From Candidatus Omnitrophota bacterium (lineage in GTDB: Bacteria > Omnitrophota > Gorgyraeia > Zapsychrales > JANLHA01): DNA of 64,000 nucleotides. Below, piece after piece: positions 7,038 to 58,407 of the stretch; position 1 is the stretch's first letter, and each line of letters opens with the position of its first letter. The stretch lies in assembly GCA_022711395.1 (NCBI GenBank), contig JAKLFA010000003.1, forward strand, positions 34,509 through 98,508, given 5' to 3'. Made by a program: the position numbers and the translations under genes. Under the pieces are notes generated by a model that had not been told where the DNA came from, ran no database searches, and saw only the letters and a program-made list of their open reading frames with translations.

Positions 7038-7101
7038 CCTTTTCCGTTTCCTTTTTTTCCCTCGACTCTCTACCCTTTTCGTTTTGCACTTTATCCTGTA
7101 T

Positions 7102-29838: not shown

Positions 29839-31569
29839 CTAGAAATTAATAACACATTTCAAAATGAGCTGATGCTCTTTATAATTCAATGTGCCGTCTT
29901 CATGCATGTAACGGTTAATGTCCCCCCTGAGGACGATATGCCGGTCACGGTCCTTGCCCAGCGTCCAATCCAATTCCATGAACGAACGGTTGTTGGTGTA
30001 ATCCGCGTTGGCCTTGGCGTTATTGCTGTCCATCAAATTGTGCCCGAACCGGGTCAAAAAATTCTTTGAAATATCGTATTGCCCGGAAAACCCTAACGAG
30101 GCGTTGACGTCATAATTATCATCTGTCTTGATCCGCCGGAAATCCATGCCCGGATTAAGGGAAAGATACAGGCGGCGAGCCACAACATAATATTCCCGGG
30201 CAAAGGTCATCCCCAGACGGTTGAAATAATCCGACGCGCTTTTATCATGCCGGTTGCTAAAGGCCCGGTACTGATACGAAAACCCGACATCCGTTTCTTT
30301 GAACCGGTCATAGAGCCCAAACCCGGAGGTAAATGTGCTGCTTTCCAGCGTGTTGGCAACATCATCGGAATTGCGTAAATTATATCCTGTGTTCAGGCGC
30401 ACCCGAAAAGTCTCGCGGGAGGCTAACGGCAAAAAATTCATCGTCACGCTTTTTTCATCATTGATCGTCCGTTTTGTGCGCGAACTGCCGGTCAAATGGT
30501 CCCAATAATAATTATGCAAAAGCGACACGGACGCCCGTTTGCTGAAGCGATGGTCCACGGTCGTCTGATGCTGGACCTTATCCGGCGAGGCGGAACCCAC
30601 GTCCGCATAAAACTGCGGCTGCGTGTAACCGTAAAGATGCCGCACCGTGGTCTTGCCGAACTTCAGCTGAGGCGTCACCCTCAAGGCGTTGCCGTAGCTC
30701 TGGTCCTTGACCGTTGCCGAATCCTCATCCGCCAGATACATACTGCGGGCCAGTTCATAGTTCAGGGAAAAATACCGGACAAACGCCAGGTCCCCGTCGA
30801 CCGAAAGGACGCTGTTGCGCAGGTCCGTAAACGATGAGGTCCGGTCAGGGTCCGAACTGTCATCCTGCACGGTCACCGCCTGAAAACCAAGCCGGGAATT
30901 GGAGACCGTTTCGGAATCCTTGAACCAGAACGTGTCGAATTTTGTCCCAAAGACATTCCGTTGAAACGTTGATGCCGCCTCATCAGGACCATCCTGACGC
31001 GCCGCGATGTATTTCATGGCAAGGGTTTCGTTGGGCTTGACCTCAGCGGTCAACCCTTCCAAAGACGATCCCATAGTCAAAGGGCTCAATTCGCCATAAA
31101 AATCCCCGGCAAGGAACAGATTGTCGGGGTTGGAAACTTTCAATGAATATTCTTTGATGCGGACATCCCTTCGGGGCTCTATGCGGGGATTGTCGGTCTT
31201 GCGCATCATGAGCTGGCCTTCCATATTATAATCGCTCCACAGCTTTTCCTGCATGTTGAGGTCCATCTCGGTCAGATAATCCCATCCTTTATCAAGGAAT
31301 GATTTTGACTTGTTGCCGCTGACCTTATCATACTCCGCCTGGGTGAGAACAGAACCGCTGATCCGGCCGGAGCGCTCGGACATGGGGCGGTCAGAACTGA
31401 GGTCCATCAGGTCCTTAAAACGCTGTGAAAGCGGATAGCTCTTATTTTGCTCTGATTTTTCTCCGCCGCCATTGCCAAAATAATAGACCTCAGCGGAAAA
31501 GGCGTAAGGTGTTGAAAAAAAACAGCATAGAACTGAGAACAAAACTAATTGGTAGATAGTTTTTTTCAT
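29839..31569 (-). CDS. Outer-membrane beta-barrel protein (576 aa), family unrecognised
   Basis: Signal peptide MKKTIYQLVLFSVLCCFFSTPYAFSA. Alternating hydrophobic / Y,R,N,D,S,T-rich beta-strand pattern throughout, with a C-terminal ...ILKCVINF ending in the aromatic residue typical of the outer-membrane-protein signature. An AT-rich promoter region lies upstream at 31570..31673. Confidence 0.7.
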   Translation of the reverse strand: MKKTIYQLVLFSVLCCFFSTPYAFSAEVYYFGNGGGEKSEQNKSYPLSQRFKDLMDLSSDRPMSERSGRISGSVLTQAEYDKVSGNKSKSFLDKGWDYLTEMDLNMQEKLWSDYNMEGQLMMRKTDNPRIEPRRDVRIKEYSLKVSNPDNLFLAGDFYGELSPLTMGSSLEGLTAEVKPNETLAMKYIAARQDGPDEAASTFQRNVFGTKFDTFWFKDSETVSNSRLGFQAVTVQDDSSDPDRTSSFTDLRNSVLSVDGDLAFVRYFSLNYELARSMYLADEDSATVKDQSYGNALRVTPQLKFGKTTVRHLYGYTQPQFYADVGSASPDKVQHQTTVDHRFSKRASVSLLHNYYWDHLTGSSRTKRTINDEKSVTMNFLPLASRETFRVRLNTGYNLRNSDDVANTLESSTFTSGFGLYDRFKETDVGFSYQYRAFSNRHDKSASDYFNRLGMTFAREYYVVARRLYLSLNPGMDFRRIKTDDNYDVNASLGFSGQYDISKNFLTRFGHNLMDSNNAKANADYTNNRSFMELDWTLGKDRDRHIVLRGDINRYMHEDGTLNYKEHQLILKCVINF

Positions 31570-31673
31570 ACCCTGTCCTGTTTGGTGAGTGATAAAAATG
31601 GAAATATGAAATATTATATATAGAAAAAATATAAAAACAAATGAAAATTATCGCTTTTTTACTGAAACAGCCT

Positions 31674-32531
31674 TTAAAAAATGTGCTGAACAATATAATC
31701 CGCAATATACTGATTGGCCTTGAAATTCGGATGCGAGTCATACCTGCTGATAGCATATTGACCGGGGTCTTGCTGATATCCCGGCAGGATATCCTTGATC
31801 TGATGCACTGTGATCCCCGCGCGCTGAAAACGTTCCAGGAGGTCCTCGTCACGCTCCACGTGCTTTTTATTATGACTATCCCGCGCCCCCCAATAGACCA
31901 CATGAAATTCCAACCCGGGAAATTTATCCTGCAGGGCCTCTTTTGCAGAAAGAATGATCGCAAGATAAGTTTTAAGGTCCTTTTCACAAGCAGGGTCGCA
32001 CTCTCTAAAAAACCTCTGATAAACAGCGCTTTTCTGAAACAAACGCCTAAGGATCATCCGGCACTTATGATCATCAAAACGACCGTCATGAACGGACGCT
32101 CCGGCGGGAGACAGGACATAGTGCGGGCCATGGCTCCCCCACCACTTTTTCCCCGCAGCCCGGGACACATGGGAAAATTCCGTCTGAAAGATCGCGTATC
32201 GTGGCCGGCAGCGAACAGCCCCGTCAACAACTCCATGCTCGATCGCGCTCAGCATCTGATGGGGCCCATAACCATGAAACCCGAAATTATAGGTCTTCCT
32301 GTTGGAGATCTTCCCGGCCAGATAAGGTATGGTTTCCTCATCCTCCAGCCCCTCTCCGAAGGTCATGGAACATCCAAAAAACAAGACCGCCGCATCGCAT
32401 GGCTCCGTCGCGGCCGCGAAAGACCGTCTCAATCCGTCCTCATCGATCGAATAGGTCACATCATAGACCGTCTCGTTATTGCAAACCCGACGGACCCTGT
32501 TGCGCGTGTTGCGGGCCGGCACGGTCCCCAA
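31674..32531 (-). CDS. SGNH/GDSL-type hydrolase (putative esterase / O-acetyltransferase-like). Its N-terminal membrane-anchor region appears to be cut off by an in-frame TGA.
   Basis: Block I FFGCSMTFGEG (Ser in a GDS-like context) and a C-terminal catalytic RYDSHPN (D..H). The track ORF starts at a TTG at 32531. The upstream in-frame sequence encodes hydrophobic segments with no start codon (see finding). Confidence 0.6.
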   Translation of the reverse strand: MGTVPARNTRNRVRRVCNNETVYDVTYSIDEDGLRRSFAAATEPCDAAVLFFGCSMTFGEGLEDEETIPYLAGKISNRKTYNFGFHGYGPHQMLSAIEHGVVDGAVRCRPRYAIFQTEFSHVSRAAGKKWWGSHGPHYVLSPAGASVHDGRFDDHKCRMILRRLFQKSAVYQRFFRECDPACEKDLKTYLAIILSAKEALQDKFPGLEFHVVYWGARDSHNKKHVERDEDLLERFQRAGITVHQIKDILPGYQQDPGQYAISRYDSHPNFKANQYIADYIVQHIF

Positions 32532-32726
32532 GACCTCATCTTTCTGGAAATAACCCTGTGTTTCGTTTGTCTGACAACGGACCTGGAACGACCGCGAGAC
32601 AGCCGCCCCCGCCTCCAGAATCCCAAGGCAGGCGAAAAGAACGGCCGCGTTATAAAAAAACAGCCGTTTAAACGTTGCCGTCCCGCTGCCAAGGCGCGCA
32701 AAAAACGCAGCAGCGCAGCAGAACAG

Positions 32727-32864
32727 TCAAATATAAGGATAACAATTGTATTTAAGATCCAGGACGGTCAATATGACCAAAACCAGAACCGCCGCGCCCT
32801 GCCAAAAACCAGCACGGGTTGAGGCGGCAAAAAGATCTTTCCAGTTGGCGATGGGATTTTTCAT
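32727..32864 (-). CDS. Small 45-aa TM peptide ORF in the same frame as, and terminating 195 nt upstream of, the SGNH hydrolase ORF.
   Basis: Manual translation gives MKNPIANWKDLFAASTRAGFWQGAAVLVLVILTVLDLKYNCYPYI followed by TGA. Continuing in frame gives LFCCAAAFFARLGSGTATFKRLFFYNAAVLFACLGILEAGAAVSRSFQVRCQ..., which runs into the hydrolase domain. Confidence 0.3.
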   Translation of the reverse strand: MKNPIANWKDLFAASTRAGFWQGAAVLVLVILTVLDLKYNCYPYI

Positions 32865-33064
32865 AGAGAATATTCTGTCTCAAAGTGGATTTTCTGTCGA
32901 TGTATTTTCGCTTTATTTTTAGCTGACCCCGCGCCAACAGGGCTCAGTCTTTCCTAAATAAAAAGGTTCCCGGCATGAATGCGAAGCCTTTTGGGGACGG
33001 CCCACAGCATCCCTCGGACATTCCGTCCTCGGTCGCTGCCTCGACCAAGAACTTCTTATTCAAT

Positions 33065-33099
33065 AAAAAAGGCACCCCGCAAAACAGGATGCCTTTTTT
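33065..33099 (-). terminator. Rho-independent terminator downstream of tRNA-Asp. GC stem-loop GGCACC.../...GGATGCC flanked by A6 and T6, so it is bidirectional in form.
   Basis: aaaaaaGGCACCCCGCAAAACAGGATGCCtttttt read directly. The tRNA 3' end is at 33107. Confidence 0.65.
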
Positions 33100-33106
33100 A
33101 TTTAAA

Positions 33107-33183
33107 TGGCGGGGCTGACGAGACTCGAACTCGCGACCTCCGGCGTGACAAGCCGATATTCTAACCAACTGAACTACAGCCCC
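33107..33183 (-). tRNA. tRNA-Asp (anticodon GTC), CCA encoded
   Basis: Reverse complement: GGGGCTGTAGTTCAGTTGGTTAGAATATCGGCTTGTCACGCCGGAGGTCGCGAGTTCGAGTCTCGTCAGCCCCGCCA. It folds as a cloverleaf with anticodon stem TCGGC/GCCGG and loop TTGTCAC. Confidence 0.85.
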
Positions 33184-33192
33184 AAAAATCAA

Positions 33193-33275
33193 GACACAGA
33201 ACACTAGACACAGGACACATAAAAACCACAAACCAAACAAGGCCCTACCGCTCCCTGTGTCGTGTGTCGTGTGTC
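33193..33275. repeat. Heptamer-array inverted element A. Left arm GACACAG-AACACTA-GACACAG-GACACAT, 34-nt spacer, right arm CTGTGTC-GTGTGTC-GTGTGTC. Lies between tRNA-Asp and tRNA-Val.
   Basis: Tandem 7-nt units read directly. The arms are mutually reverse-complementary, forming an imperfect long hairpin. Confidence 0.7.
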
Positions 33276-33286
33276 ATCGTCGTATA

Positions 33287-33359
33287 TGGGCGGTGCTGGG
33301 CTCGAACCAACGACCACTTGAATGTAAGTCAAGTGCTCTACCAACTGAGCTAACCGCCC
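33287..33359 (-). tRNA. tRNA-Val (anticodon TAC), CCA not encoded
   Basis: Reverse complement: GGGCGGTTAGCTCAGTTGGTAGAGCACTTGACTTACATTCAAGTGGTCGTTGGTTCGAGCCCAGCACCGCCCA. Anticodon stem CTTGA/TCAAG with loop CTTACAT. Confidence 0.85.
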
Positions 33360-33421
33360 TGAAAATCAGTGATCAACTAACAATGAACAATGAAAAATTT
33401 CCAACCTCTCAAGAATGAGGA

Positions 33422-33450
33422 ATAATACTATAAAAGGTATTTACTGTCAA
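33422..33450 (-). promoter_or_regulatory. Sigma-70-type promoter for the tRNA-Val / tRNA-Asp unit: -35 TTGACA, 17-nt spacer, -10 TATTAT.
   Basis: The minus strand reads TTGACAgtaaataccttttatagTATTAT, about 60 nt upstream of the tRNA-Val 5' end. A half array AACTAAC-AATGAAC-AATGAAA (33375-33395) lies in the leader. Confidence 0.6.
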
Positions 33451-33469
33451 CTAGAAAAAATCTCCGTCA

Positions 33470-33550
33470 GACACCAGACACACGACGCATGACACAGGAA
33501 AACCTCAAATTTTCAACCCCCCTTGTGTCCTGTGCCCTGTGTCTTGTGTC
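33470..33550. repeat. Heptamer-array inverted element B. GACACCA-GACACAC-GACGCAT-GACACAG, 25-nt spacer, TTGTGTC-CTGTGCC-CTGTGTC-TTGTGTC. Lies 17 nt downstream of the atpK stop codon.
   Basis: Read directly. Same unit family as elements A and C. Confidence 0.7.
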
Positions 33551-33566
33551 AGCTCGCAGATGCAAA

Positions 33567-34022
33567 CTATGGCGCGATCGCGTTGGCTGAAATCATGAAA
33601 AACACCATGACAAACAGCGCCACGGTCTCGATAATACCCAGAACGATCATGTAATTGGTGAACCCTTTTCCGGTCTCCGCTAAGGCGTCGCAGGCGCTTG
33701 CCGCGGCCTTCCCCTGCATCATGGCCGAAACGCCCAGCGCCAGGCCTCCGAAGATCCCGAAACCCCACGCATAAACGCCCTGAGCGACCAGGCCGCGCAA
33801 GGTCAACAGGAGCAAAAATCCGTAGATCGTCTGTGTCAAAGGAGCGCCGACAAAAGCCAGCAGCAAAAACGGCGCGGCCTTGCCCTGCGCGTAGCATTTT
33901 TTCCAGGCCCCGACCGCCGCCATCCCCGCGTAGCCGGCCCCCAACCCTGAGCCCACGGCAGCCAAAGCGACTGCGGCCGAGATCCCCAGGTCCTTCAATT
34001 GAGCTAAAACTGTCGCATCCAT
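33567..34022 (-). CDS. atpK: V-type ATP synthase subunit K (proteolipid c subunit, double hairpin)
   Basis: 151 aa with 4 TM helices, Gly/Ala-rich (GLGAGYAGMAAVGAW...), and the conserved carboxylate in ...GIIETVALFVMVF. Confidence 0.85.
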   Translation of the reverse strand: MDATVLAQLKDLGISAAVALAAVGSGLGAGYAGMAAVGAWKKCYAQGKAAPFLLLAFVGAPLTQTIYGFLLLLTLRGLVAQGVYAWGFGIFGGLALGVSAMMQGKAAASACDALAETGKGFTNYMIVLGIIETVALFVMVFFMISANAIAP

Positions 34023-34049
34023 GTATGGTTCCTTTCTTAAAACTTAAAC

Positions 34050-34119
34050 GACACACGACACAAGACACATGACACAAGAAACTACAATTCCCTGTGTCAT
34101 GTGTCCTGTGTCTTTGTGC
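34050..34119. repeat. Heptamer-array inverted element C. GACACAC-GACACAA-GACACAT-GACACAA, 14-nt spacer, CTGTGTC-ATGTGTC-CTGTGTC-TTTGTGC. The right arm overlaps the last 7 codons and the stop of atpI.
   Basis: Read directly. The atpI C-terminal TKTQDT* is encoded by the array. Confidence 0.7.
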
Positions 34120-35869
34120 CTGCCCTTAATGGTTTATACTCAAACCCTGTCCATTGAATGTTCATATGATTGGAAAATTCCAAAACATTTAACCGAACGC
34201 CGTGCACCAGGATCGCCATCGATCCCAGGACAATGTTCAAGACATGCCCCGTTACCAGGATCGCCGCCGTGATAACGCCGGTGAACACGTTCCCGAAGCC
34301 GACACTTAAAGCGATGTCATTGAACGCATCCGCGATCGCAACTCCCGCCAGGCCGACGGCGAACAAACGGATATAGGAGATCACGTCCGTAAAAGTATTG
34401 ATAAATCCCCCGAAGAACGCCCCCATGCCCTGTCCTGCCGTTTTCAGGATATTTTTGCTCGGCGCGGAATAAAAAATGACCAAAAGCGCTCCTAAAACCA
34501 TCAGCCCCGGAGCGAACACCGGCATCGGCTCTTCAATAATAAGCTGTTTGACCAAAAAGAACATCCCCCAGATCCACGCCGCCCAACCGAATTCCCCAAA
34601 CGCCGAAAAAGACGGCGAACGAAGGATCCCTCTCCAGATATGGGCGAAGCTGAGCTGAACTGCCCCGATCAGAAAACACACCTTCTGCACATTGGCGTTA
34701 TCGGTCAACCACGGCGACAAAGGAGCGATCAAGCCGTGCAGCCATTTCTGGCCGAACCATGTCCCGGTCAACGCGCCCCAGGCGATCGTCATGGCGGCAA
34801 GAATATACATTAAATAAAAAGGCTCTTTGCGCGCGATCTTCTCGCCGGCCTTCCACTGGATCAAAGCCGTCCCCAGCGCGAACACGGCGCCGTAGCCGGC
34901 ATCCCCGATCAGAATGCCGAAAAAGATCGAAAAGAAAAATAAGAACGCGAAACTGATATCCAACTCCCGGTAGCCGGGCAGGACATTGATCAGCTTCAAG
35001 ACAGGATTAACGATATTCACCCATTCCGGATTACGCAAAAGCGTGGGGACCTGGTCTTCTTCGGAAGGATCTTCCATGATCAGCGCCCACTGGTGTTGCC
35101 GGGCCGCCGCTTCAATTTCCTGGCAGGCGTCCTCCGGGCAAAATCCCCTGATCACGCTTAAAGGCCCGTCCACATTCCGGCCGCAAAGGGCTTCATGATA
35201 TGACAGCTGCGCCTGAAGCTTGTTAAGCGCGTCCTCGAACGATCCGCAGTATTTGGCGCAATCCCGGATAAAATCCTGCAGGTCCTGACGTTCATTATTG
35301 GACCGCTGGATCAATTCCTGAAATTGCTCAACGCTGTGTTTCGGAGGAACGACCTCATCAAAATCAAGCTTGACCCGCTGCGACGAAAAGACCGCCAAAC
35401 GCGTCAGGCCGTCCGCGGTAAAAATGTGCTCGACCGTCAGCCCTTCCGGGATCTCCGCCAGTTTGCTTTCCGGGACCCGGAACAACTGGACATGGATCCC
35501 CTTTTTCTGAAGGGCCTCAATGTCCGCCGGATCCAAGTTGCCCCAACGCTGCCAGCGGTGAAGCTGACTCTCAAGTTCAATGATCTCTTCTTCCAATTCC
35601 TTACTGCGCTCTTCCGCCGTCAGGACATTGATGAACATCTGCTCCCAATGCTCACAGGGGACCTGCGGGGCCTGTCCTTTAAGGGGCTCAAGGATGTTGA
35701 GAACCTCTTCCATGCGCTCGATCTCGGCGCGGAGCCGTTCGACCCGCTCCCCTTTGGGAAGCTGATCGTGCTCGACATGAAGGACCCCCATCCCCGCCAG
35801 AACATCCAGCGCGTTATGGATATCCTTATCCTCCAGCACGACATAAATTTTTTTCATGGGAACGATCAT
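34097..35869 (-). CDS. atpI: V-type ATP synthase subunit I (a subunit)
   Basis: 590 aa. An N-terminal coiled-coil cytosolic domain, then a C-terminal polytopic membrane domain. Confidence 0.85.
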   Translation of the reverse strand: MIVPMKKIYVVLEDKDIHNALDVLAGMGVLHVEHDQLPKGERVERLRAEIERMEEVLNILEPLKGQAPQVPCEHWEQMFINVLTAEERSKELEEEIIELESQLHRWQRWGNLDPADIEALQKKGIHVQLFRVPESKLAEIPEGLTVEHIFTADGLTRLAVFSSQRVKLDFDEVVPPKHSVEQFQELIQRSNNERQDLQDFIRDCAKYCGSFEDALNKLQAQLSYHEALCGRNVDGPLSVIRGFCPEDACQEIEAAARQHQWALIMEDPSEEDQVPTLLRNPEWVNIVNPVLKLINVLPGYRELDISFAFLFFFSIFFGILIGDAGYGAVFALGTALIQWKAGEKIARKEPFYLMYILAAMTIAWGALTGTWFGQKWLHGLIAPLSPWLTDNANVQKVCFLIGAVQLSFAHIWRGILRSPSFSAFGEFGWAAWIWGMFFLVKQLIIEEPMPVFAPGLMVLGALLVIFYSAPSKNILKTAGQGMGAFFGGFINTFTDVISYIRLFAVGLAGVAIADAFNDIALSVGFGNVFTGVITAAILVTGHVLNIVLGSMAILVHGVRLNVLEFSNHMNIQWTGFEYKPLRAGTKTQDT

Positions 35870-35891
35870 ACGTTTTCACTTCATTTAAAAA

Positions 35892-35952
35892 GACACTGGG
35901 GCACTCTGACACTCAGGCGCTGGTGTCTCAGTGCCATAGTGCCTTAGCGCCC
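35892..35952. repeat. Octamer-array inverted element D. GACACTGG-GGCACTCT-GACACTCA, loop GGCGC, then TGGTGTCT-CAGTGCCA-TAGTGCCT-TAGCGCCC. The right arm overlaps the atpD stop codon.
   Basis: Read directly. Base pairing was checked by hand: about 20 bp of imperfect stem. Confidence 0.7.
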
Positions 35953-36585
35953 TACTGTTGCCAACTCAATCTTCTTCTTCGCCACTTTACTGATGCCGAC
36001 GGCATTCGCCTGCTGGTCCCCCAGATAGATCGTGATCTTGCGGATATTCTCCTGGCATTCTGGGATCTTGACCTTTTCAAAAAGATTGACCCTCTGCGTC
36101 GTTGTCCGCAGCTCAATCCCCAAACAGCGGATCTCCTCTTCAATGACCTGCACTCTCACCAGGCATTCCACATAGGCCTTGAGCTGTTCGATCCCGCGGT
36201 CCAGCCACAAAGGCGCCAAGAACGGATCGCGTTCAACGGCCGGGCACATGATCTTGTTAAAGACCGGCACATACGCCCCGGCGACATTGGCCTGGCCCAG
36301 CATAATATCAAGAGGAAGGACCGCTTTCTGAAGGTCGCAGACCGGGCCCGCGCCCTGAGGGCCCTGCTTTAAAGACGGGTCCGCCAGAAGACCGACCCAG
36401 CGGGCGATCAAATCCTTCTTCTGCTTCAGCTCTTCCTGCTGCTGCGAAAGGCTGCGCTGCGCCTCAAAGATCTTCATCTGAAGCTGCTGTTTCTTGAGCT
36501 GCAGCGTGGGAAGATACCTTTTGAACTGCCCGAGGGCGTCCCGCTGGCGCTTCAATTCGCCTTTTGTTAATTTGATCTTAGCCAC
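35944..36585 (-). CDS. atpD: V-type ATP synthase subunit D (GTG start)
   Basis: 213 aa. N-terminal MAKIKLTKGELKRQRDALGQFKRYLPTLQLKKQQL is the subunit D signature helix. Confidence 0.85.
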   Translation of the reverse strand: MAKIKLTKGELKRQRDALGQFKRYLPTLQLKKQQLQMKIFEAQRSLSQQQEELKQKKDLIARWVGLLADPSLKQGPQGAGPVCDLQKAVLPLDIMLGQANVAGAYVPVFNKIMCPAVERDPFLAPLWLDRGIEQLKAYVECLVRVQVIEEEIRCLGIELRTTTQRVNLFEKVKIPECQENIRKITIYLGDQQANAVGISKVAKKKIELATVGR

Positions 36586-36603
36586 TTTGAACTTTCTTAT
36601 AAA

Positions 36604-36732
36604 GGAAAATGGAGCATGGAAAACAGATTACGGAAAAACCAAACAACATAAACTTAAAACCCTCAAAACTTTTAACTCTTCCTACGTGTTGTTTTTTGTC
36701 TTCCGTTCTCCGTCCTCCATTTTCCATATCCC
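36604..36732. repeat. Octamer-array inverted element E. GGAAAATG-GAGCATGG-AAAACAGA-TTACGGAA-AAACC, 60-nt spacer, TTCCGTTC-TCCGTCCT-CCATTTTC-CATATCCC. It ends 8 nt before the atpB stop codon.
   Basis: Read directly. The left arm is nearly identical to element K (AAAACAGCTTACGGATAAACCC). Confidence 0.65.
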
Positions 36733-36740
36733 TATCAGTA

Positions 36741-38033
36741 TTATTTTTTCCAGTATTTCTTAACCAGCGCGTCCTTGATCCCTGTTTCTTCCGGGTCAAA
36801 AATATCGGACAGGATCCTCCATCCCAGATCAAGGGCCTCCTCCAGCGGAATGTTGACCGACAGCGACATCAATTCCTCTTCAAACCGCTTGCCGTATTTC
36901 AATAATTTCTCGTCCCAGGCGCTCATCTGAAATCCAAGCGCTTTTTTCTCAAGTGTGGAGCGGTAATCCGCGAACAGCTGGATCATGCGGTCCATGATCG
37001 CGCGGTGGTCAGGCCGGGTGTCGCCGTTGACCTGCTGCTTCAAACGGCTCAAAGACCCGAACGGCTCGATATGCCCACCTTTAAGGTAGAACTGTCCCTC
37101 GGTGATATAACCGGTGTTGTCCGGCACAGGATGGGTCACGTCGTCCCCCGGCATGGTGGTGACCGCAAGGACCGTAATGGAACCCGCCCCGTCAAAGTCG
37201 ACTGCCTTTTCATAACGGGCCGCCAACTGGCTGTAAAGGTCTCCGGGATACCCGCGATTCGACGGGATCTGTTCCATGGTGATGGCGATCTCTTTCATGG
37301 CGTCCGCGAAGTTGGTCATGTCCGTCAAAAGCACAAGCACGCGCTTCCCCTGCAGGGCGAACTGCTCGGCCACCGCCAGGCACATGTCCGGCACCAGAAG
37401 GCATTCGACCGTCGGATCAGAGGCTGTGTGAATAAAAAGCACCGAGCGGGAAAGGGCCCCGTGTTCTTCAAAGGTGTCCTTAAAGAAAAGGTAGTCATCA
37501 TATTTCAAACCCATGCCGCCCAAAATGATCATATCGACCTCGGCCTGCATGGCAATGCGCGCCAAAAGCGGGTTATACGGCTCTCCGGCGATCGAAAAAA
37601 TGGGAAGCTTCTGGGATTCCACCAGCGTGTTGAAGACGTCGATCATCGGAATGCCGGTGCGCACCATCTTCCTGGGAATCACGCGCTTTGCCGGGTTGAC
37701 CGAAGGCCCGCCGATCTCGGTCATGCGTTCCTGCAGGACAGGGCCGTTATCCCTGGGCTGGCCGCTGCCGTCGAACACGCGACCAAGAAGGTCATCGCTG
37801 ATCGAAACCTGCATCGGCCGTTTTAAGAACATTACCCTGTCATTGGTCGATATCCCGCGGCTGCCGGCCAGGACCTGCAAAGAGACCTTTGCCCCGTCCA
37901 TGCGGATGACCTGAGCCAGGGATGTTCCCTGCGCGGTCCTGATCTGGGCCAGTTCGCGGTAAGCCACATCTTCAGCCTCAACAGTGATGACGTCTCCGGC
38001 GATCTGAATGATTTCATTATAAACTTTTTGCAT
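36741..38033 (-). CDS. atpB: V-type ATP synthase subunit B. The start was taken at MQKVYNEII.
   Basis: Non-catalytic subunit signature, with no intact P-loop, and homology to the A/B family throughout (…[10 protein letters not shown]…, …[11 protein letters not shown]…). Confidence 0.85.
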
Positions 38034-38062
38034 AAACAATCCTTTTAGAAAAATTAATAAAT

Positions 38063-38217
38063 GACACCAAGACACTAGGACACTACGGCACTAAAAACCT
38101 TAAATCCTTAAAACCTAAAAACAAAAATGTCTTTTTTTAATTTTTCGTTTTCACGTTTTCACTTTTAACATTTTCCCGTTCTTCCCGGTGCCTCAGTGCC
38201 TCAGTGCCTTAGTGCCC
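38063..38217. repeat. Octamer-array inverted element F. GACACCAA-GACACTAG-GACACTAC-GGCACTAA, an AT-rich spacer carrying a second array GTTTTCAC-GTTTTCAC-TTTTAACA-TTTTCCCG-TTCTTCCC, then CCGGTGCC-TCAGTGCC-TCAGTGCC-TTAGTGCC. The right arm overlaps the atpA stop codon by 9 nt.
   Basis: Read directly. Confidence 0.7.
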
Positions 38218-39933
38218 GATTTTCTCAAATATCCCCTTTTCCATCTGTTTAAAATCGCCGCTTTCAAACTCTGCCGAGTTCCAGTTAATGAACCTTTGCC
38301 GCAGGTCCTGAAAAGACCGGCGGGCCTCATCCTTATGTTTAAAATTGAACGGCGCTTCAAGGACCTGAACCAGCCTGTCAAAAACATAGACCTGCCGTTC
38401 TTTCGGGGTATATTCATCGACCTTATCGAACGCGTTCTGCTGCAAATAGACGGAATCAAAGAATTCCGCTTTTAAATAGACCACAAAATCGTCCATGGAG
38501 GTCCCCTCTTCACCGACGACCTTCATCATCTGTCCGATGTTGCTGCCTTTGCGCAGGATGCTGACCGCTTTCTGGATCTTTCCGGCATCGATAAAACTGC
38601 TGTATTTGCTCCAGCTGTCCAGCGGGTCGATGGCCGGGTACCGGCGCGCGTCCGAACGCGCCCGTGACAACCCATGAAAAGCGCCCACGACCTTCAGCGT
38701 CCCCTGGGTGACCGGCTCTTCAAAGTTCCCCCCGGCGGGTGAAACGCTTCCGCCAATAGTGATCGATCCGGTCTCCCCGTTCCTGAGCTGAACAAGCCCC
38801 GCCCGTTCATAAAAAGACGCGATACGGGACTCCAGATAAGCCGGAAACGCCTCCTCTCCGGGGATCTCTTCAAGGCGCCCTGACATCTCACGCATCGCCT
38901 GGGCCCAGCGCGACGTGGAGTCCGCCAACAACAAAACATTCAATCCCATCTGGCGGTAATACTCCGCCAGGGTCACTGCCGTGTAAACCGAAGATTCGCG
39001 CGCGGCGACCGGCATCGAACTGGTGTTGCAAATGATGATCGTGCGCTCCATCAGGGTCTTTCCGGTCCGCGGGTCATGCAGTTTGGGAAATTCCCTCAAG
39101 ACTTCCACGACCTCACCGGCGCGCTCACCGCAGGCGGCAATCACCACGATATCGACCTCCGCGTGACGGCTCAACAAATGCTGAAGGACCGTCTTTCCGG
39201 CGCCGAACGGCCCCGGCGTGCAGAACGTTCCGCCCAGCGCCACCGGCACCAGCGTGTCGATGATGCGGATCTTGGTGACCATCGGGTCCACCGGCTTCAA
39301 TTTCTGAGCATAGGCCGTGATCGGGACCTTGACCGGCCAGGTTTGATACATCGTCACCTCGTGCACCTTGCCGGCGGTGTCCTTGACCTTGGCGATCACA
39401 TCACGGATCTTATATTTCCCTTTTTGTGCGACCTCGACGACTTCCAGGATCTCGTTCTGAAAGCGGAACGGGACCATGATCCAATGTTCAAAGATCCCCT
39501 CGGGCACGCTGCCCAGCTTATCGCCTGAACGGACCTTGTCCCCGCGTTTGGACTTGGGCGTGAATTCCCACTGCGCCTGAAGGTCCAGCGCCGGAAGATA
39601 AACGCCCCGCTTTAAAAAGAAACCATGCTGCTGGGCAAGCTCCGGAAGCGGGTTCTGCAACCCGTCAAAAACCTGGGTCAAAAGCCCCGGCCCAAGCTCC
39701 ACGCTTAAAAGTTCACCGCTGAATTCCACCCGGTCATTGACCTTTACCCCACTGGTATCCTCAAAGACCTGAAGGTCCGCGCGCTTGCCTCTTACGCGAA
39801 TGACCTCCGCTTTGAGACTTTCCTCCCCGCGCTGAATATAGGCCACCTCGTTCTGCATGACGCGGTCCTCAAAGCGGACCGCGACCATGTTCCCGTTTAT
39901 GCCGATCACTGACCCTTCACGTTTATCGCTCAC
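38209..39933 (-). CDS. atpA: V-type ATP synthase catalytic subunit A
   Basis: 574 aa. Walker A GPFGAGKTVLQ and an N-terminal beta-barrel domain. Confidence 0.9.
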   Translation of the reverse strand: MSDKREGSVIGINGNMVAVRFEDRVMQNEVAYIQRGEESLKAEVIRVRGKRADLQVFEDTSGVKVNDRVEFSGELLSVELGPGLLTQVFDGLQNPLPELAQQHGFFLKRGVYLPALDLQAQWEFTPKSKRGDKVRSGDKLGSVPEGIFEHWIMVPFRFQNEILEVVEVAQKGKYKIRDVIAKVKDTAGKVHEVTMYQTWPVKVPITAYAQKLKPVDPMVTKIRIIDTLVPVALGGTFCTPGPFGAGKTVLQHLLSRHAEVDIVVIAACGERAGEVVEVLREFPKLHDPRTGKTLMERTIIICNTSSMPVAARESSVYTAVTLAEYYRQMGLNVLLLADSTSRWAQAMREMSGRLEEIPGEEAFPAYLESRIASFYERAGLVQLRNGETGSITIGGSVSPAGGNFEEPVTQGTLKVVGAFHGLSRARSDARRYPAIDPLDSWSKYSSFIDAGKIQKAVSILRKGSNIGQMMKVVGEEGTSMDDFVVYLKAEFFDSVYLQQNAFDKVDEYTPKERQVYVFDRLVQVLEAPFNFKHKDEARRSFQDLRQRFINWNSAEFESGDFKQMEKGIFEKIGH

Positions 39934-39963
39934 AATGCACTCCTTTTATCTCTCATCGACCTT

Positions 39964-40518
39964 TTATTTAAAAGTCCTGATTTTTTCGTCCTTCATCTTC
40001 AGGACGTTCACTTCGATCGCCTCAAAGATCTGCCGCCCCTCCTGGGAGGCGAAGACCGACAACCGCTCCAGGATCTTCAATTTCGCGGCATAGATCAAAA
40101 TGCACTCCAGATCAAAAAAATGGTTCAAACTCATATGTTCCAGCCGGTCCCATTGAAGCCGCATCACCATTTTTTCAGCGGTCAAAAGGTCCCCTTCCTT
40201 GAAGGCCTGATTGACAATGTCCACGACCTCGGAGTCGAACCCCCGCTCAAAATTCAATGCCGCTCCGGCCCCCTGATGGGACAGGCGATGCCAGGCGATC
40301 TCCGCCTGCAGTTCATGGACAAACCTCTGCCATTGCGCTAGCAACGGATTAAACGGAGCGCCATTCCGCAGCCCCAGGGCGCGCTCAACGTCCTCGTAAT
40401 CTTCCTTTTTTAAAAGGCGTTCACAATCAATACGGAACTCCTCGACCGTGAGCGGTGAACTTCCGTTAAAGGCCAGTGTGGGTAACGTCGCGACAAAATA
40501 ATAATACGAGGAACTCAT
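39964..40518 (-). CDS. V-ATPase operon-associated protein (184 aa), possibly DUF2764 / subunit C-like
   Basis: It sits between atpE and atpA, as in the E, accessory, A, B, D, I, K operons of Bacteroidota, Chlamydiota and Spirochaetota. The protein is helical and I recognise no catalytic motif. Confidence 0.4.
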   Translation of the reverse strand: MSSSYYYFVATLPTLAFNGSSPLTVEEFRIDCERLLKKEDYEDVERALGLRNGAPFNPLLAQWQRFVHELQAEIAWHRLSHQGAGAALNFERGFDSEVVDIVNQAFKEGDLLTAEKMVMRLQWDRLEHMSLNHFFDLECILIYAAKLKILERLSVFASQEGRQIFEAIEVNVLKMKDEKIRTFK

Positions 40519-41144
40519 GACATCCCGGCTTCTTTCAAAAGTTTAGCGACCTCCGCGTTGACAAAAGCGCTCATATAGGAAGTCAGGCTTTCATTGGAAA
40601 AATCAAAACTGGATTTCCCGCCATCAAAACTGATCAAAAAACCGGAAGAGAGCTGGTCCGCCCGCTCCAGCGTGATCGAAGCTTTAAGCTGACCCTGCAA
40701 CGCCTTAAGCGAACCGTCGGAGAAGGCCTTAAGCTGCTGCTCCGGCAAAGCCACGCGGATGTCCGAGACCCCGGGATGCTTTGCGACATAGGCTTTTACG
40801 ACTTCCGTCAACAAACTCGCCACCTGTTCCGGTTTCAGGCCTTCTTTAACCTGGGCCGAAACGATGGCCTTCAGACGACGGAGGATCTCCGAACGGAGAG
40901 AAAGAAGCGTGTCGCGCGCGGCCTGTTTTAAAGTCGCGTTGGTCGCGGTTTCCTGCTTTTTCGCCTGGTCCTTAGCCTGCGAAACGATCTGCTCGGCCTG
41001 CGCCCTGGCTTTGGCCACGATCTCTTCAGCTTTCCGCTGCGCGGCCTGTTCGATCTCCTGGGCCTTTTTTGAGGAAGCCTCCACTCCTTCGGTCTTAATT
41101 TTATTGATCAAATCCTGAATATTCTGCGTCATGATAGTCTCCAT
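40515..41144 (-). CDS. atpE: V-type ATP synthase subunit E
   Basis: 209 aa. The N-terminal half is a long A/E/K/Q-rich helix (KKAQEIEQAAQRKAEEIVAKARAQAEQIVSQAKDQAKKQ), followed by a globular C-terminus. Confidence 0.8.
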   Translation of the reverse strand: METIMTQNIQDLINKIKTEGVEASSKKAQEIEQAAQRKAEEIVAKARAQAEQIVSQAKDQAKKQETATNATLKQAARDTLLSLRSEILRRLKAIVSAQVKEGLKPEQVASLLTEVVKAYVAKHPGVSDIRVALPEQQLKAFSDGSLKALQGQLKASITLERADQLSSGFLISFDGGKSSFDFSNESLTSYMSAFVNAEVAKLLKEAGMS

Positions 41145-41153
41145 TTAATGAAT

Positions 41154-41237
41154 GAACAATGAACAGATAACAATGAACAATTATGAGCGCACTGGAAGCA
41201 CGCGCCATCATTGTTAATTATTAATTATTAGTTGTTA
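41154..41237. repeat. Heptamer-array inverted element G. GAACAAT-GAACAGA-TAACAAT-GAACAAT, a GC-rich 28-nt core containing its own small hairpin, then ATTGTTA-ATTATTA-ATTATTA-GTTGTTA. The right arm overlaps the pyrF stop codon.
   Basis: Read directly. It occupies the whole pyrF-atpE intergenic region. Confidence 0.7.
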
Positions 41238-42020
41238 ACTGCTTTTTTGAATTTCCTCCAGGATCTTCAACGCAGCCTGTTGTGGGTCAGGAGCTTTAAC
41301 GATTGGACGGCCTACGACCAAAAAACTGCTTCCGCTTTGAACGGCCAGGGAAGGCGTCGCTACCCTTTTTTGGTCGCCGACATCAGCCCCAGCGGGCCGG
41401 ATGCCGGGTGTGACAATAACAAAATCTTTTCCGAACTCTTTCCGGATCGCAGAAGCCTCTGCGCAGGAAGAAACAACCCCATCTAATCCGGCGCGTTTAG
41501 CCGCCTCCGCACGCTTTAACACTAAGGTTAGTATATTATCGCTGACTTCTCCGCCTGTCAACCCCGCGGCCTGCGTCTTTTGATCCTGTGAGGTCAAGAC
41601 CGTGACCCCAACCGTAAGAGGCCGTCGGACCTTGAGCGTTTCGGCCGTCTGAGCGGCAGCCTGCGAGGCGGCCCTCATCATCTCTTCACCGCCGGAAGTG
41701 TGGACCGTATACATCAAAAGCTCTCCCATCCTGACCTCCTGCCCGCTGGCAGTCAGGCTGCTGCGGCCGACCGCGGTGCTTAAATTGACAGCGTTGGCAA
41801 CCGCATGGGCCACTGTATTGGGAATATCATGAAACTTGAGGTCCAGAAAAACTTCCTTCCCCCTCGCCATAAGAAATCTCGCTGCGGCAGGGCCGCAAGA
41901 AGTGAAGACCTGGCTTCCGACCTTATAAATTTTAACCGCGTCGCCGATCCCATCAACGATCTCTTGAAGCTCCGCCAAGCTGTCAACATCCAGCGCGACG
42001 ATCAACTCAGGCTTTTTCAT
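41235..42020 (-). CDS. pyrF: Orotidine-5'-phosphate decarboxylase
   Basis: 261 aa. LIVALDV..., FLDLKFHDIPNTV and a TIM-barrel OMPdecase pattern. Confidence 0.85.
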   Translation of the reverse strand: MKKPELIVALDVDSLAELQEIVDGIGDAVKIYKVGSQVFTSCGPAAARFLMARGKEVFLDLKFHDIPNTVAHAVANAVNLSTAVGRSSLTASGQEVRMGELLMYTVHTSGGEEMMRAASQAAAQTAETLKVRRPLTVGVTVLTSQDQKTQAAGLTGGEVSDNILTLVLKRAEAAKRAGLDGVVSSCAEASAIRKEFGKDFVIVTPGIRPAGADVGDQKRVATPSLAVQSGSSFLVVGRPIVKAPDPQQAALKILEEIQKSS

Positions 42021-42041
42021 AAGAAATTCCTTTTAAAAACT

Positions 42042-42149
42042 CACAGATAACAGTGAACAACTAACAATTGATGTGCGCCCTTTGGGCGCTAAATCTTTAG
42101 GCCGCGCAGCGGCACCACGACTGTTAATTATTATCTGTTAATTGTTAAC
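42042..42149. repeat. Heptamer-array inverted element H. CACAGAT-AACAGTG-AACAACT-AACAATT, a core with two GC hairpins (GCGCCC-TTT-GGGCGC and GCCGC-GCA-GCGGC), then TGTTAAT-TATTATC-TGTTAAT-TGTTAAC. It abuts the pyrD stop codon.
   Basis: Read directly. Confidence 0.7.
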
Positions 42150-43057
42150 TAAACAGCACATCCTATCAACTCTTTAATATCTTTTATGCCATTATCTTTC
42201 ATATACTGTTCAATACCTTCCAGGACCTGAAACGGCGCCAAGGGGTCGACAAAATTCATCGTTCCCACGGCGACCATGGTCGCCCCCGCCATAATGAACT
42301 CCAGCGCGTCATGGGCATTAACGATCCCGCCCATGGCGATGATCGGGATCCCGACCGTTGAAAAGGCCTCATAGACCATGCGCACGGCGACCGGCTTGAT
42401 CGCCGGGCCGCTCAATCCCCCGGTCACGTTCCCGAGCACCGGCCTGCGCTTTTTGACATCGATCGCCATCGCCGAAAGCGTGTTGATCAGGCTCAAGCCA
42501 TCAGCGCCCCCGTCCTGCGCCCCGCGGGCAATGACCTTGATATCGGTGACATTCGGCGTCAATTTGGCGATTACCGGAAGCTTCGTCGCTTTTTTGATCC
42601 TGTGGACCGTCTGACGCGTAAGCTCCGGGTCCTGGGCGATCAAAACTTTTTTTCGCAGGTTAGGGCAGGATAAATTCACCTCAAGGGCCGCAACACCCGG
42701 TATCCCGTTAAACCGCTGGGCCAGCTCGACAAATTCCTTCTCGTCATGCCCCAGGATGCTGGGAATAACCGGCACGCCCGTCCGCAAAAGTCCGGGCAGC
42801 TTATTGGCGATAAAATCATCCACTCCGCCATTCTCAATACCGATCGCGTTCAGCATGCCCGACGGTGTCTCGGCCACCCTTGGGGGAGGGTTCCCCTCCT
42901 GCGCGCGCAGCGTCACGGTCTTGGGAACGATCGCCCCAAAACGACGCATCTCCTCATCCGAATAATATTCCGGTTTATACCAGAACGTCCCGCTGGCAAC
43001 CGTCAAGGGGTTCTGGAACTCAACATTTGCGATCTTAACTTTAAGGTTTTTGCTCAT
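42149..43057 (-). CDS. pyrD: Dihydroorotate dehydrogenase catalytic subunit (class 1B)
   Basis: 302 aa. FMN-binding TIM barrel, with ...NLSCPN... and the active-site Cys region. Confidence 0.85.
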   Translation of the reverse strand: MSKNLKVKIANVEFQNPLTVASGTFWYKPEYYSDEEMRRFGAIVPKTVTLRAQEGNPPPRVAETPSGMLNAIGIENGGVDDFIANKLPGLLRTGVPVIPSILGHDEKEFVELAQRFNGIPGVAALEVNLSCPNLRKKVLIAQDPELTRQTVHRIKKATKLPVIAKLTPNVTDIKVIARGAQDGGADGLSLINTLSAMAIDVKKRRPVLGNVTGGLSGPAIKPVAVRMVYEAFSTVGIPIIAMGGIVNAHDALEFIMAGATMVAVGTMNFVDPLAPFQVLEGIEQYMKDNGIKDIKELIGCAV

Positions 43058-45530: not shown

Positions 45531-45700
45531 TTGCTAAGAAAATTGGCCTGAATTTTCGCAAAGTCACGCCACAAACACAACATTTTTCAAAAATCTATGG
45601 GCTTAACATTCCACTTTAATAAAAATCGGTCTTTTGGATAAATTTTATAATTTTTAAGCATTTTTACATTATCAGATCCATGCTCTCCACATGAAATCAA

Positions 45701-45772
45701 AGGCCCCGTCGGGAATCGAACCCGAACCACAGGAACCGGAGTCCTGGACTCTATCCATTAAGCTACGGGGCC
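45701..45772 (-). tRNA. tRNA-Arg (anticodon CCG)
   Basis: Reverse complement: GGCCCCGTAGCTTAATGGATAGAGTCCAGGACTCCGGTTCCTGTGGTTCGGGTTCGATTCCCGACGGGGCCT. Anticodon stem CAGGA/TCCTG with loop CTCCGGT, and T-arm TCGGG-TTCGATT-CCCGA. The discriminator base appears to be U, so the ends are uncertain by plus or minus 1. Confidence 0.7.
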
Positions 45773-45780
45773 TTAACCAT

Positions 45781-45864
45781 CGAAAACGGAAAACCAAAAA
45801 CAGCTTACGGATAAACCCTCAAACCTTCTCCGCACTCCGTTTTCCGCGCTCCGTTATCTATTTT
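45781..45864. repeat. Octamer-array inverted element K. CGAAAACG-GAAAACCA-AAAACAGC-TTACGGAT-AAACCC, spacer, CTCCGCAC-TCCGTTTT-CCGCGCTC-CGTTATCT. It abuts the pyrC stop codon and lies just upstream of tRNA-Arg.
   Basis: Read directly. Same unit family as element E. Confidence 0.6.
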
Positions 45865-48694: not shown

Positions 48695-48729
48695 AAAAAA
48701 AATGCCCGCTTCCTTCGAAGAAAGCGAGC
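48695..48729 (-). terminator. Leader terminator of a probable PyrR-dependent attenuator. Hairpin GCUCGCUUUCUUC / GAAGGAAGCGGGC followed by U8, about 40 nt upstream of the pyrR start codon.
   Basis: Base pairing was checked by hand: 11-13 bp including two G-U pairs, with a TCGA-type loop. A candidate PyrR-binding loop AUCCAAUGAGAUUG (compare the consensus UCCAGAGAGGCU) lies about 50 nt further upstream, and a possible antiterminator AGCUU...AAGCU overlaps the 5' arm. Confidence 0.5.
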
Positions 48730-48952
48730 TTCTATACATCACAAGCTGAAAATTTTTAAAATTTTTCAATCTCATTGGATCCTTTACGGCCTCACAGGAC
48801 CGCTTTAAAGGTTGTATATTGATGCAAATATAGCACTTCCGATGCCATCTGTCAAGCAAATGAAAAATCCGCTTCACGAAAAGAAAACGCTTCCTAAATA
48901 AGTGGATTCGGAATTGAAGTCAAAATCGTTATATACTATACTCATATTAACT

Positions 48953-56466: not shown

Positions 56467-56472
56467 CCTATA

Positions 56473-58340: not shown

Positions 58341-58407
58341 GCTGATGCAACTCTAAAAAGCCGAAAAAAGCCTTTCAAATGGTGACACGCCGCTTCTCAC
58401 GCAGGGT

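Follow-up and report, generated by a model that had tools for sequence, protein, structure and literature searches.

Tandem-heptamer hairpin repeats at the V-ATPase operon junctions of a Candidatus Omnitrophota genome

Introduction

Why are the genes of a V-type ATPase operon held apart by inverted arrays of 7-nt repeats, and do such arrays serve that operon or only reside in it? The question is raised by a 64-kb stretch (hereafter, the window) of contig JAKLFA010000003.1, from a metagenome-assembled genome (MAG) of an uncultured Candidatus Omnitrophota bacterium; identical contigs are present in three assemblies, GCA_035452745.1 among them. Here the V-ATPase operon lies on the minus strand within a 9-kb stretch, in the order E-X-A-B-D-I-K, with pyrD and pyrF upstream and the genes for tRNA-Val and tRNA-Asp downstream. 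An initial annotation of the sequence described a family of paired, inverted arrays of tandem 7- to 8-nt units, with at least eight copies in 9 kb and one in every junction of the operon, and suggested roles in mRNA stability or the tuning of subunit stoichiometry. We examined the anatomy, folding, strain variation and phylum-wide distribution of these elements. As a reading that we hold to be somewhat better than evenly probable, we propose that they are dispersed tandem-heptamer hairpin repeats without open reading frames (ORFs), transcribed with the operon, kept foldable, likely acting as generic 3' stem-loops, and evolving by slippage together with recombination or gene conversion.

Paired arrays of tandem heptamers occupy the intergenic DNA

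An array detector based on autocorrelation at a lag of 7 or 8 (at least three units, at most three mismatches), coupled to a search for reverse-complement partners, returned 18 merged array segments in the window; 100 dinucleotide shuffles gave 2.18 +/- 1.49, and never more than 6. Intergenic DNA makes up 6.6% of the window, yet 17 of the 18 segments lie in it (expected, 0.30 +/- 0.52), and the eighteenth, a half-array ahead of glmS, is also non-coding because it stands upstream of the true start of that gene, identified by the protein sequence MCGIIGY. Tandem Repeats Finder (TRF) and an inverted-repeat finder independently give the same arrays and arm pairs, the period-7 arrays of TRF having 2.7-4.4 copies. 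Pairing the TRF arrays by consensus rotation recovered one of eight elements and was dropped for the lag-autocorrelation detector.

Each element consists of three to five head-to-tail units of 7 or 8 nt, a gap of 6-90 nt, and the reverse-complement array. Inverted arms measure 19-34 nt, pair with 76-89% complementarity, and are terminal inverted repeats in the sense used for miniature inverted-repeat transposable elements (MITEs). Eight paired elements, A to H, fall within 33186-42152, as the initial annotation had placed them (33.2-42.2 kb), and element I stands further out (Table 1). In the 64 kb and a further 3.4 kb of this genome we count 12, elements and half-arrays taken together, with a cluster at 33-42 kb; the 3.4-kb extension past the window has no arrays. 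The claims for individual half-arrays fared unevenly. Those expected near 33375 and 58306 were detected within a few nucleotides of these positions, whereas one proposed at 828-878 failed the periodicity test and folds with a z score of +0.4 against shuffles. Of element K, the TGTTAAT-type array is present and the full paired structure is not. Nor does an element sit in every junction of the operon: E and X overlap by 4 nt, X and A are separated by a 30-nt spacer, and neither place carries one.

The elements keep a consistent position between genes. Four of the eight have the upstream stop codon (of pyrF, A, D or I) within their 5' arm, so that the element itself encodes the last residues of subunits A, D and I, and three others begin 3-13 nt past a stop. 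At the other end, the 3' base of the hairpin lies 17-29 nt ahead of the next start codon, and therefore only the ribosome-binding site stays free.

Four unit subfamilies, much as first described, account for the window's elements: GACACAN units in A, B and C; GRCACTNN units in D and F; AACAnnn/TGTTAAT units in G, H, 33372-33400 and 56436-56467; and ACGGAAAA-like units in E and I. Different elements share only 13- to 31-nt arm units at 86-100% identity and have no common palindrome, and no long duplicates were found within the window. The shared arm units, together with copies shared between junctions in a related species (below), support an evolving family of repeat elements rather than isolated palindromes. 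The units are unlikely to derive from local gene ends, since one unit family can turn up at junctions that are unrelated, and in both orientations. We also found no support for the idea that 7- or 8-nt units are favoured because a stop codon in each unit shuts all frames: of 88 sense arrays, 22 had all three frames closed, where unit-permuted controls predict 17.

Rfam offers no family for the elements. The only matches above gathering score in the window are tRNAs and a PyrR site, and element C, searched at E <= 1, drew weak microRNA-like hairpin matches far under threshold.

The elements fold preferentially as sense-strand RNA

Folded as RNA of the coding (minus) strand, elements A to I have minimum free energies (MFE) of -25.8 to -63.1 kcal/mol and z scores of -3.6 to -10.5 against dinucleotide shuffles; folded as DNA, they have z scores of -2.0 to -7.9. 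The stems are 20-60 bp long, AU/GU-rich and mismatched, with helices of about 6 bp split by 1x1 or 2x2 internal loops that fall at the variable position of the unit. The imperfect hairpins with periodic mismatches postulated from the bare sequence are thus real, and their stability exceeds that of shuffled controls.

The two strands do not fold equally well. The sense fold beats the antisense fold in 9 of 9 window elements. Among 55 co-directional junctions with arrays, drawn from the window and its relatives, the sense strand is the more stable in 41 and the antisense in 14 (Wilcoxon p = 1.4e-4), and with the window's own elements removed the counts are 34 and 13 (p = 0.002). Sense folds of the 55 junctions contain 342 G·U pairs and antisense folds 192, with a sense-strand G+T content of just 0.508; the ratio of G·U to A·C is 1.78, where base composition predicts 1.24. 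When G·U pairs are forbidden during folding, the symmetric mismatches comprise 12 G·U and 3 A·C (binomial p = 0.035). In element C, all three differences between the arms are G·U pairs on the sense strand. Single-base variants among close strains likewise keep or improve pairing, as in element A (U·G to C-G) and element D (an added A-U pair). These observations favour a constraint acting at the level of the transcript, to which strand-biased mutation may add some of the G·U excess. They also make RNA within operon transcripts the most plausible setting for the structures, in line with the initial annotation; its further proposal of tuning specific to the V-ATPase is taken up below.

Whole elements are replaced between near-identical haplotypes

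Close strains were reached through the protein cluster of subunit D. We distinguish the window haplotype (W-type) from the haplotype resembling L166 (L-type), L166 being assembly GCA_029561995.1. Over 6.8 kb of V-ATPase coding DNA, L166 differs from the window by three substitutions (99.95% identity). Elements G, E and B are identical in the two (G in L170 also) and A differs by a single base, whereas F, D and C have been replaced. At the A-B junction, L166, L170, L173 and L178 carry a TTGAAACAC-type element of period 10-11 instead of F. The D-I junction of L166 measures 203 nt against 53 in the window, with the GACACTNN family kept but a 140-nt interior and arm matches in the opposite orientation, and its I-K junction measures 227 nt against 78, with GCGTARA units instead of GACACAN. 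These long L-type elements are rods, 60-75% paired, with purine-rich 5' halves and U/G-rich 3' halves, and their sense and antisense energies are -84/-50, -71/-36 and -59/-23 kcal/mol.

The replaced tracts have sharp limits. They take in the final 3-8 codons of the gene upstream, which differ synonymously, and end exactly at the next start codon; at the protein level the haplotypes diverge only in a few C-terminal residues of A, D and I. In the tail of subunit D, the codons of the window version match species L164 and those of the L166 version match species L165. An L-type A-B element stands beside a W-type D-I element in L178, which is therefore a recombinant haplotype, and the D-I copy in L178 and L182 is the one-base variant with the extra A-U pair. 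Each haplotype recurs unchanged in at least four independent assemblies or samples, and misassembly is therefore excluded as their source.

The array-encoded C-terminal tails of I (34100-34120), D (35947-35960) and A (38212-38225) differ between strains, since arrays are translated until a stop appears within them. Subunit I ends in RAGTKTQDT in one strain and KGSVERKV in another, and subunit A of L165 (8540-8570 of that locus) ends in NEANEQITTNR, encoded by an AACAGAT array.

The species L165 is syntenic with the window, and its subunit D is 75% identical. A stretch of 174 nt recurs at 98.3% in its pyrD-pyrF and I-K elements, which differ in their 3' parts and are therefore mosaic copies; between its I-K and D-I elements, 64 nt are shared at 93.8%. 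The A-B junction of L165 holds a member of the window's G/H family, and its tRNA spacer holds an orthologue of element A with one arm shorter by a unit. A single junction can thus carry a different family in each of three close genomes, although all draw on a common repertoire of families, which argues for dispersed repeats that move or convert rather than structures built in place. Element E is identical in 15 of 15 close contigs and missing from L164 and L165, where the B-D spacers are 23-28 nt.

Two further observations concern these junctions and their surroundings. The 28-nt B-D spacer of L165 (9973-10001) contains a two-unit mini-array (GGTAGAGC GTAAAGG) of the GCGTARA type seen at the I-K junction of L166, which may be a seed or a remnant. 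Just beyond the operon, positions 31000-33000 are 97.7% identical to L166, with a 68-nt indel at 32993, next to an operon at 99.95%; from this comparison the genome seems mosaic and the operon recently homogenised.

Heptamer arrays extend across Omnitrophota

About 2 Mb of sequence from Omnitrophota loci that surround this operon was searched at one self-identity threshold, 82%. Intergenic arrays of period 7 number 50, against 1 in shuffles, followed by periods 8 (6), 11 (4) and 9 (1), so that the window is not a local oddity; 14 spirochaete loci with the same operon yielded no period-7 array. Heptamer arrays are phylum-wide in intergenic DNA. Relatives bear them along whole loci (for example, 14 in 22 kb of locus L009), and a strong reverse-complement partner within 300 nt accompanies 48 of 116 intergenic arrays, a score that the reversed-sequence control reached in 7 of all 253 arrays. 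The units of other species are wholly different (GGTGATA, GAGTAGA, ATAGACC, CTATCCG and others), and those of the window recur in its closest relatives only. Arrays occur in 12.5% of co-directional, 5.4% of convergent and 7.3% of divergent spacers of the relatives (Fisher p = 0.016).

In most Omnitrophota the stop and start codons at the A-B and D-I junctions overlap or abut: the stop codon of subunit D overlaps the start of I (ATGA or GTGA), the last codons of A overlap the start of B, and the I-K spacers are short. The elements are therefore insertions and not conserved regulators of the V-ATPase, and it is in the window's clade that inserts have opened the compact junctions. Tuning specific to the V-ATPase is not borne out, given these compact A-B and D-I junctions and a near-identical haplotype with unrelated elements.

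Genome and metagenome scans returned nothing above 75% identity to subunit A, and the nearest species-level relatives are all Candidatus Omnitrophota. Several close V-ATPase relatives bear the labels Planctomycetales, Methanomicrobiales, Methanoregula or Elusimicrobia, yet their sequences group within Omnitrophota. This suggests that such contigs are mislabelled or mis-binned, perhaps from Omnitrophota attached to methanogens. A scan of 2.9 million viral contigs for three tandem GACACAN or GRCACTNN units gave 48 and 58 scattered matches, respectively, without connection to the present lineage. A search of the literature on Omnitrophota with repeats, hairpins and intergenic DNA found no report of such elements.

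Individual elements and neighbouring features

The correlation between elements, junctions and genes is listed in Table 1.

Table 1. Positions of repeat elements and neighbouring genes in the window, with sense-strand folding (MFE in kcal/mol; z against dinucleotide shuffles).
Feature	Position	Strand	Description	MFE	z
Element A	33186-33282	-	GACACAN-type hairpin in the tRNA-Val/tRNA-Asp spacer; arms 33193-33214 and 33254-33275	-38.9	-3.6
Element B	33463-33556	-	GACACAN-type hairpin, 13 nt past the subunit K stop	-38.9	-4.3
Half-array	33372-33400	-	Unpaired, AACAATG-type; leader from tRNA promoter to tRNA-Val		
Element C	34044-34122	-	I-K junction; GACACAN hairpin of about 30 bp	-51.2 (antisense -34.1)	-10.5
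Element D	35886-35956	-	D-I junction; GRCACTNN (8-nt) hairpin; subunit D stop inside 5' arm	-33.6	-4.5
Element E	36596-36732	-	B-D junction; GGAAAAT/ACGGAAAA-type arms, self-complementary interior	-48.9	-6.4
Element F	38058-38222	-	A-B junction, nested; outer GRCACTNN arms, inner AAAACCTT / GTGAAAAC arrays; subunit A stop inside 5' arm	-63.1 (antisense -31.4)	-8.0
Element G	41145-41242	-	pyrF-E junction; AT-rich AACAATG/TGTTAAT arms around GC-rich inner hairpin; pyrF stop inside 5' arm	-25.8	-4.8
Element H	42030-42152	-	pyrD-pyrF junction; G family, two GC-rich inner hairpins	-40.6	-4.7
Element I	45776-45862	-	pyrC/tRNA-Arg spacer; ACGGAAAA-type hairpin	-32.1 (antisense -12.5)	-4.8
Half-element K	56380-56472 (also delimited as 56400-56472)	-	TGTTAAT-type array from the glmS stop codon, with small GC hairpin		-1.2 (not significant)
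Half-array	58312-58341	-	Unpaired GTGAAAN; glmS 5' UTR, 7-36 nt upstream of the real start		
tRNA-Asp	33107-33183	-			
tRNA-Val	33287-33359	-			
V-ATPase subunit K	33567-34022	-			
V-ATPase subunit I	34097-35869	-			
V-ATPase subunit D	35944-36585	-			
V-ATPase subunit B	36741-38075	-			
V-ATPase subunit A	38209-39933	-			
DUF2764/X	39964-40518	-			
V-ATPase subunit E	40515-41144	-			
tRNA-Arg	45700-45773		Beside element I		
pyrC	45865-47142		Other neighbour of element I		

Several elements have features of their own. The 5' arm of C is formed by the final eight codons and the stop of subunit I. TRF divides F into arrays at 38063-38094, 38094-38122, 38146-38180 and 38188-38216. Elements E and I have the loop motif TTTGAGGGTTT in common. 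The arms of H match G at 86-94%, the half-array in the tRNA leader has stretches of 13-18 nt in common with G and H, and half-element K shares a 20-nt stretch with G at 95%. A run of six U lies 8 nt downstream of B, which may mark the end of the operon. The AT-rich arms of G (41210-41251) and H (42141-42169) contain, on the minus strand, sigma-70-like hexamer pairs with 9 of 12 matches, and by analogy with Correia elements could serve as weak promoters for subunit E and pyrF.

The neighbourhood uses ordinary signals as well. A near-consensus promoter for the tRNA-Val and tRNA-Asp genes (33450->33422, minus strand; TTGACA-17-TATTAT, 11 of 12 matches) separates element B from these genes, and a canonical GC stem with a U tract (33059-33105) follows tRNA-Asp; ordinary promoters and terminators are therefore in use alongside the heptamer hairpins. 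Upstream of a pyrR-like phosphoribosyltransferase gene and pyrB/pyrC, at 48695-48815 on the minus strand, is a PyrR-binding attenuator RNA that scores 64 bits with Rfam RF00515, over the gathering score. PyrR therefore probably controls the pyrimidine genes that surround the V-ATPase operon.

Elsewhere in the window, a perfect 24-nt palindrome without tandem units, AATTGTGGCCCGCGGGCCACAATT (7014-7037), occupies part of a pyrimidine-rich spacer at 6980-7101, which is flanked by a PfkB kinase gene and a UPF0047 gene. Two very large minus-strand ORFs of 1446 and 1472 aa (20453-24790 and 24937-29352), with no family assigned among the neighbouring gene calls, are separated by a terminator-like palindrome at 24857-24887. 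The HIP1-like sequence GCGATCGC occurs 8 times, against 3 expected, and is unremarkable.

Discussion

In the reading that we favour, self-complementary inserts built of 7-nt units (sometimes 8, rarely 10-11) would lodge in the space that separates a stop codon from the next ribosome-binding site, often providing the stop codon of the upstream gene, and would be transcribed as part of the operon mRNA or tRNA precursor. The RNA would be kept able to fold into a rod-like hairpin rich in G·U pairs. At the 3' end of a cistron, such a stem-loop could act as a barrier to 3' exonucleases or as a site for a double-strand RNase, generic rather than tailored to the V-ATPase, and by compacting the insert it would keep the stop codon and the next start near each other. 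Slipped-strand changes would add or drop whole units, and recombination or gene conversion would swap whole elements among junctions and lineages; lineage-specific unit families and hypervariable junctions would follow from the two together.

Several points weigh against this proposal. Haplotypes with nearly equal proteins can differ two-fold in the folding energy that follows one and the same cistron (at D-I, -67 kcal/mol in the L166 type and -34 in the window), and any quantitative role must therefore be loose. Arrays also occur in 8 of 110 divergent spacers and as unpaired half-arrays in 5' leaders, so an explanation by 3' stem-loops alone falls short; the relatives' gene calls behind these counts are longest ORFs, which are crude and add noise to both the distances and the orientation census. 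Base composition accounts for part of the G·U excess, and the remainder could come from a transcription-associated C-to-T bias on the non-template strand instead of selection. Nor does the proposal account for the register of 7. Transcription, processing and an effect on the mRNA, as well as the mutational mechanism, are what we infer from the sequences.

The alternative that deserves the closest hearing, although we think it unlikely, is that the arrays are a pure by-product of slippage, template switching and recombination at the DNA level, tolerated where harmless, with an RNA hairpin that has no role and G·U pairs left by strand-biased mutation. Turnover is extreme, sequence is not conserved, most relatives' junctions have no elements, and one-unit indels are seen. 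Moreover, heptamers are over-represented and the commonest long simple sequence repeat in many bacteria, where polymerase slippage has been proposed (PMC4679880, PMC4692102), and base composition by itself gives a G·U to A·C ratio above one. Such a by-product, however, does not predict the enrichment in co-directional spacers. Nor does it sit well with the large and consistent sense advantage, which reaches 34-36 kcal/mol in the long elements, with unrelated replacement alleles that are all rod-like, or with point variants that keep or improve pairing.

Beyond the slippage and conversion that we favour, the junction hairpins may be something more active, namely an ORF-less cassette-exchange system or a rod at the junctions that works in a manner resembling ribosome shunting; we regard either as doubtful. 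In the first case, breaks at an extruded or transcribed hairpin would be repaired from divergent donor DNA in a homing-like process with very short co-conversion tracts. In the second, the rod would hold the terminating ribosome by the downstream start, preserving the coupling of the ancestral overlapping stop and start. The data are compatible with both, because synonymous changes are confined to the last 3-8 codons with identity resuming at the next start, because the flanking codons of the alleles match different neighbouring species, and because the hairpin base lies so close to the start. If cassette exchange is true, operon junctions would be the fastest-evolving sites of the genome.

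The possibility that these are true MITE- or REPIN-like elements, whose arms are terminal inverted repeats and binding-site arrays for a transposase or RAYT-like (REP-associated tyrosine transposase) enzyme encoded elsewhere, is improbable on present evidence. Unit families are common to loci and close species at differing locations, with up to three families at one junction; L165 has copies at two junctions with the 174 nt in common; the B-D junction is filled in the window and empty in L164; and a possible ATATGA duplication flanks the D-I insert of L164. Yet no transposase or RAYT gene was seen among the proteins of the 64-kb window, and the filled and empty B-D sites show no clear target-site duplication. 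The mosaic copies share arms or halves and not whole elements, and the swapped cassettes carry the last codons of the upstream gene with synonymous changes, which look more like homologous exchange than transposition. Strand-asymmetric G·U pairing, for its part, is not needed for terminal inverted repeats.

Repetitive extragenic palindromic (REP) elements of enterobacteria and pseudomonads, including BIMEs and REPINs, are likewise short, species-specific palindromic repeats that lie between genes and inside operons; they are transcribed, and REP hairpins at cistron 3' ends stabilise the upstream mRNA. Each REP family, however, has one conserved palindrome of about 20-40 nt and depends on a RAYT transposase, whereas the Omnitrophota elements have no conserved palindrome and build their arms from tandem heptamers of many families. 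Correia (NEMIS) MITEs of Neisseria are 100-300 nt long, have inverted-repeat ends, are co-transcribed as hairpins cleavable by RNase III, and carry promoter-like hexamers. Elements here resemble them in length, in their inverted-repeat ends, in hairpins that RNase III could cut, probably in co-transcription and, in G and H, in the promoter-like hexamers. Correia elements occur as near-identical copies with TA target duplications, while copies here are mosaic, arms are tandem-repeated, and no target duplication is established.

We consider it very unlikely that the elements are leaky intrinsic terminators or attenuators, or conserved stem-loops of the SRPS kind (selective processing and stabilizing of RNA), that set the stoichiometry of V-ATPase subunits. 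Their location at cistron 3' ends of a heteromultimeric complex would suit this role, as would the U-rich sequence after several of them (UUUUU after D; AUUUUUU, 8 nt downstream, after B). A consensus terminator scan of the window, however, made 16 calls against 18.2 in shuffles and, among the elements, picked out nothing but the GC hairpin inside G (41206->41186); canonical short GC-rich terminators are separate, as at 33059-33105, and the elements have long, AU/GU-rich, mismatched stems instead of a short GC-rich stem and U tract. V-ATPase needs many K subunits, a demand that the energies after A (-63), I (-51), B (-49), K (-39) and D (-34) do not match. SRPS operons remain the closest precedent in possible working, since their stem-loops also stand at cistron 3' ends and their folding energies set transcript ratios (PMC4423207). 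Stem-loops of SRPS operons show tuning and are conserved together with their complex, whereas the elements here are lacking in most relatives, where the junctions are compact, and near-identical haplotypes carry unrelated ones with very different folding energies.

Least probable of all are protein-binding arrays in which each monomer covers 7-8 nt of single-stranded RNA or DNA (an OB-fold or cold-shock type) or of duplex DNA (a nucleoid protein) and inversion is secondary, for although the sharp 7-nt register, the unpaired half-arrays in 5' leaders (both in Table 1) and Bacillus subtilis CspB, with one heptamer per protein according to a review (PMC4679880), would fit, unit sequences are unrelated across families and lineages so that no sequence-specific reader fits, most arrays are tied up in hairpins with a partner, and no candidate protein was identified.

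Returning to the hairpin repeats that we propose, they are distinct from ordinary terminators and from CRISPR, as the initial annotation stated. CRISPR arrays have direct repeats of 23-50 nt and unique spacers of similar size, whereas the 7- to 8-nt units here run head to tail without spacers and are paired with an inverted array. The register itself has known counterparts. Reports of tandem heptamer repeats in bacteria go back to 1990, without agreement on their origin or function. Short tandemly repeated repetitive (STRR) sequences of cyanobacteria include units CCCCAGT, TTGGTCA and CAACAGT, canonical for STRR1-3 and not known outside heterocystous species, and number on the order of 100 dispersed copies in a genome; STRR hairpins also lie in nif spacers. 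A hairpin-capable STRR between hupS and hupL, usually of 7-bp repeats and found in several filamentous cyanobacteria, is the closest known analogue; the published account of it proposes that such hairpins may raise transcript stability or couple translation (PMC2670836). As far as that account describes them, both systems place intergenic tandem 7-bp units, as inverted arrays forming hairpins, between co-transcribed genes. The Omnitrophota elements thus share the heptamers and the hairpins with STRR and differ in taxon and in unit sequence, their own units (GACACAN, GRCACTNN, AACAATG, ACGGAAAA and GTGAAAN) being lineage-specific. Compared with STRR as that account describes them, the Omnitrophota elements also have 8- and 10- to 11-nt units, nested rods of up to about 290 nt and, often, the upstream stop codon in the arm. 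Other heptamer direct repeats (TAACTGA in Beggiatoaceae, GGGAATC in Xanthomonas, GGGGAYT in Nostoc) are similarly intergenic and over-represented, vary in length among close relatives, and occasionally form inverted pairs. Each of those genomes has one dominant unit, mostly in direct arrays upstream of starts or in G-quadruplex formers, whereas Omnitrophota have many unit families, mostly hairpin-paired after stop codons.

In summary, tandem-heptamer hairpins of unsolved function are known, and their instance in Omnitrophota is new. This lineage opens to test at which level, RNA or DNA, the constraint operates, how elements move between junctions, and whether it matters what a hairpin of arbitrary sequence does to the expression of an operon. 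The exchange of three whole elements against three point substitutions in about 7 kb catches their turnover within metagenomic populations. The junctions are also strain markers. Omnitrophota are an independent lineage in which heptamer arrays are abundant and mostly paired as hairpins.

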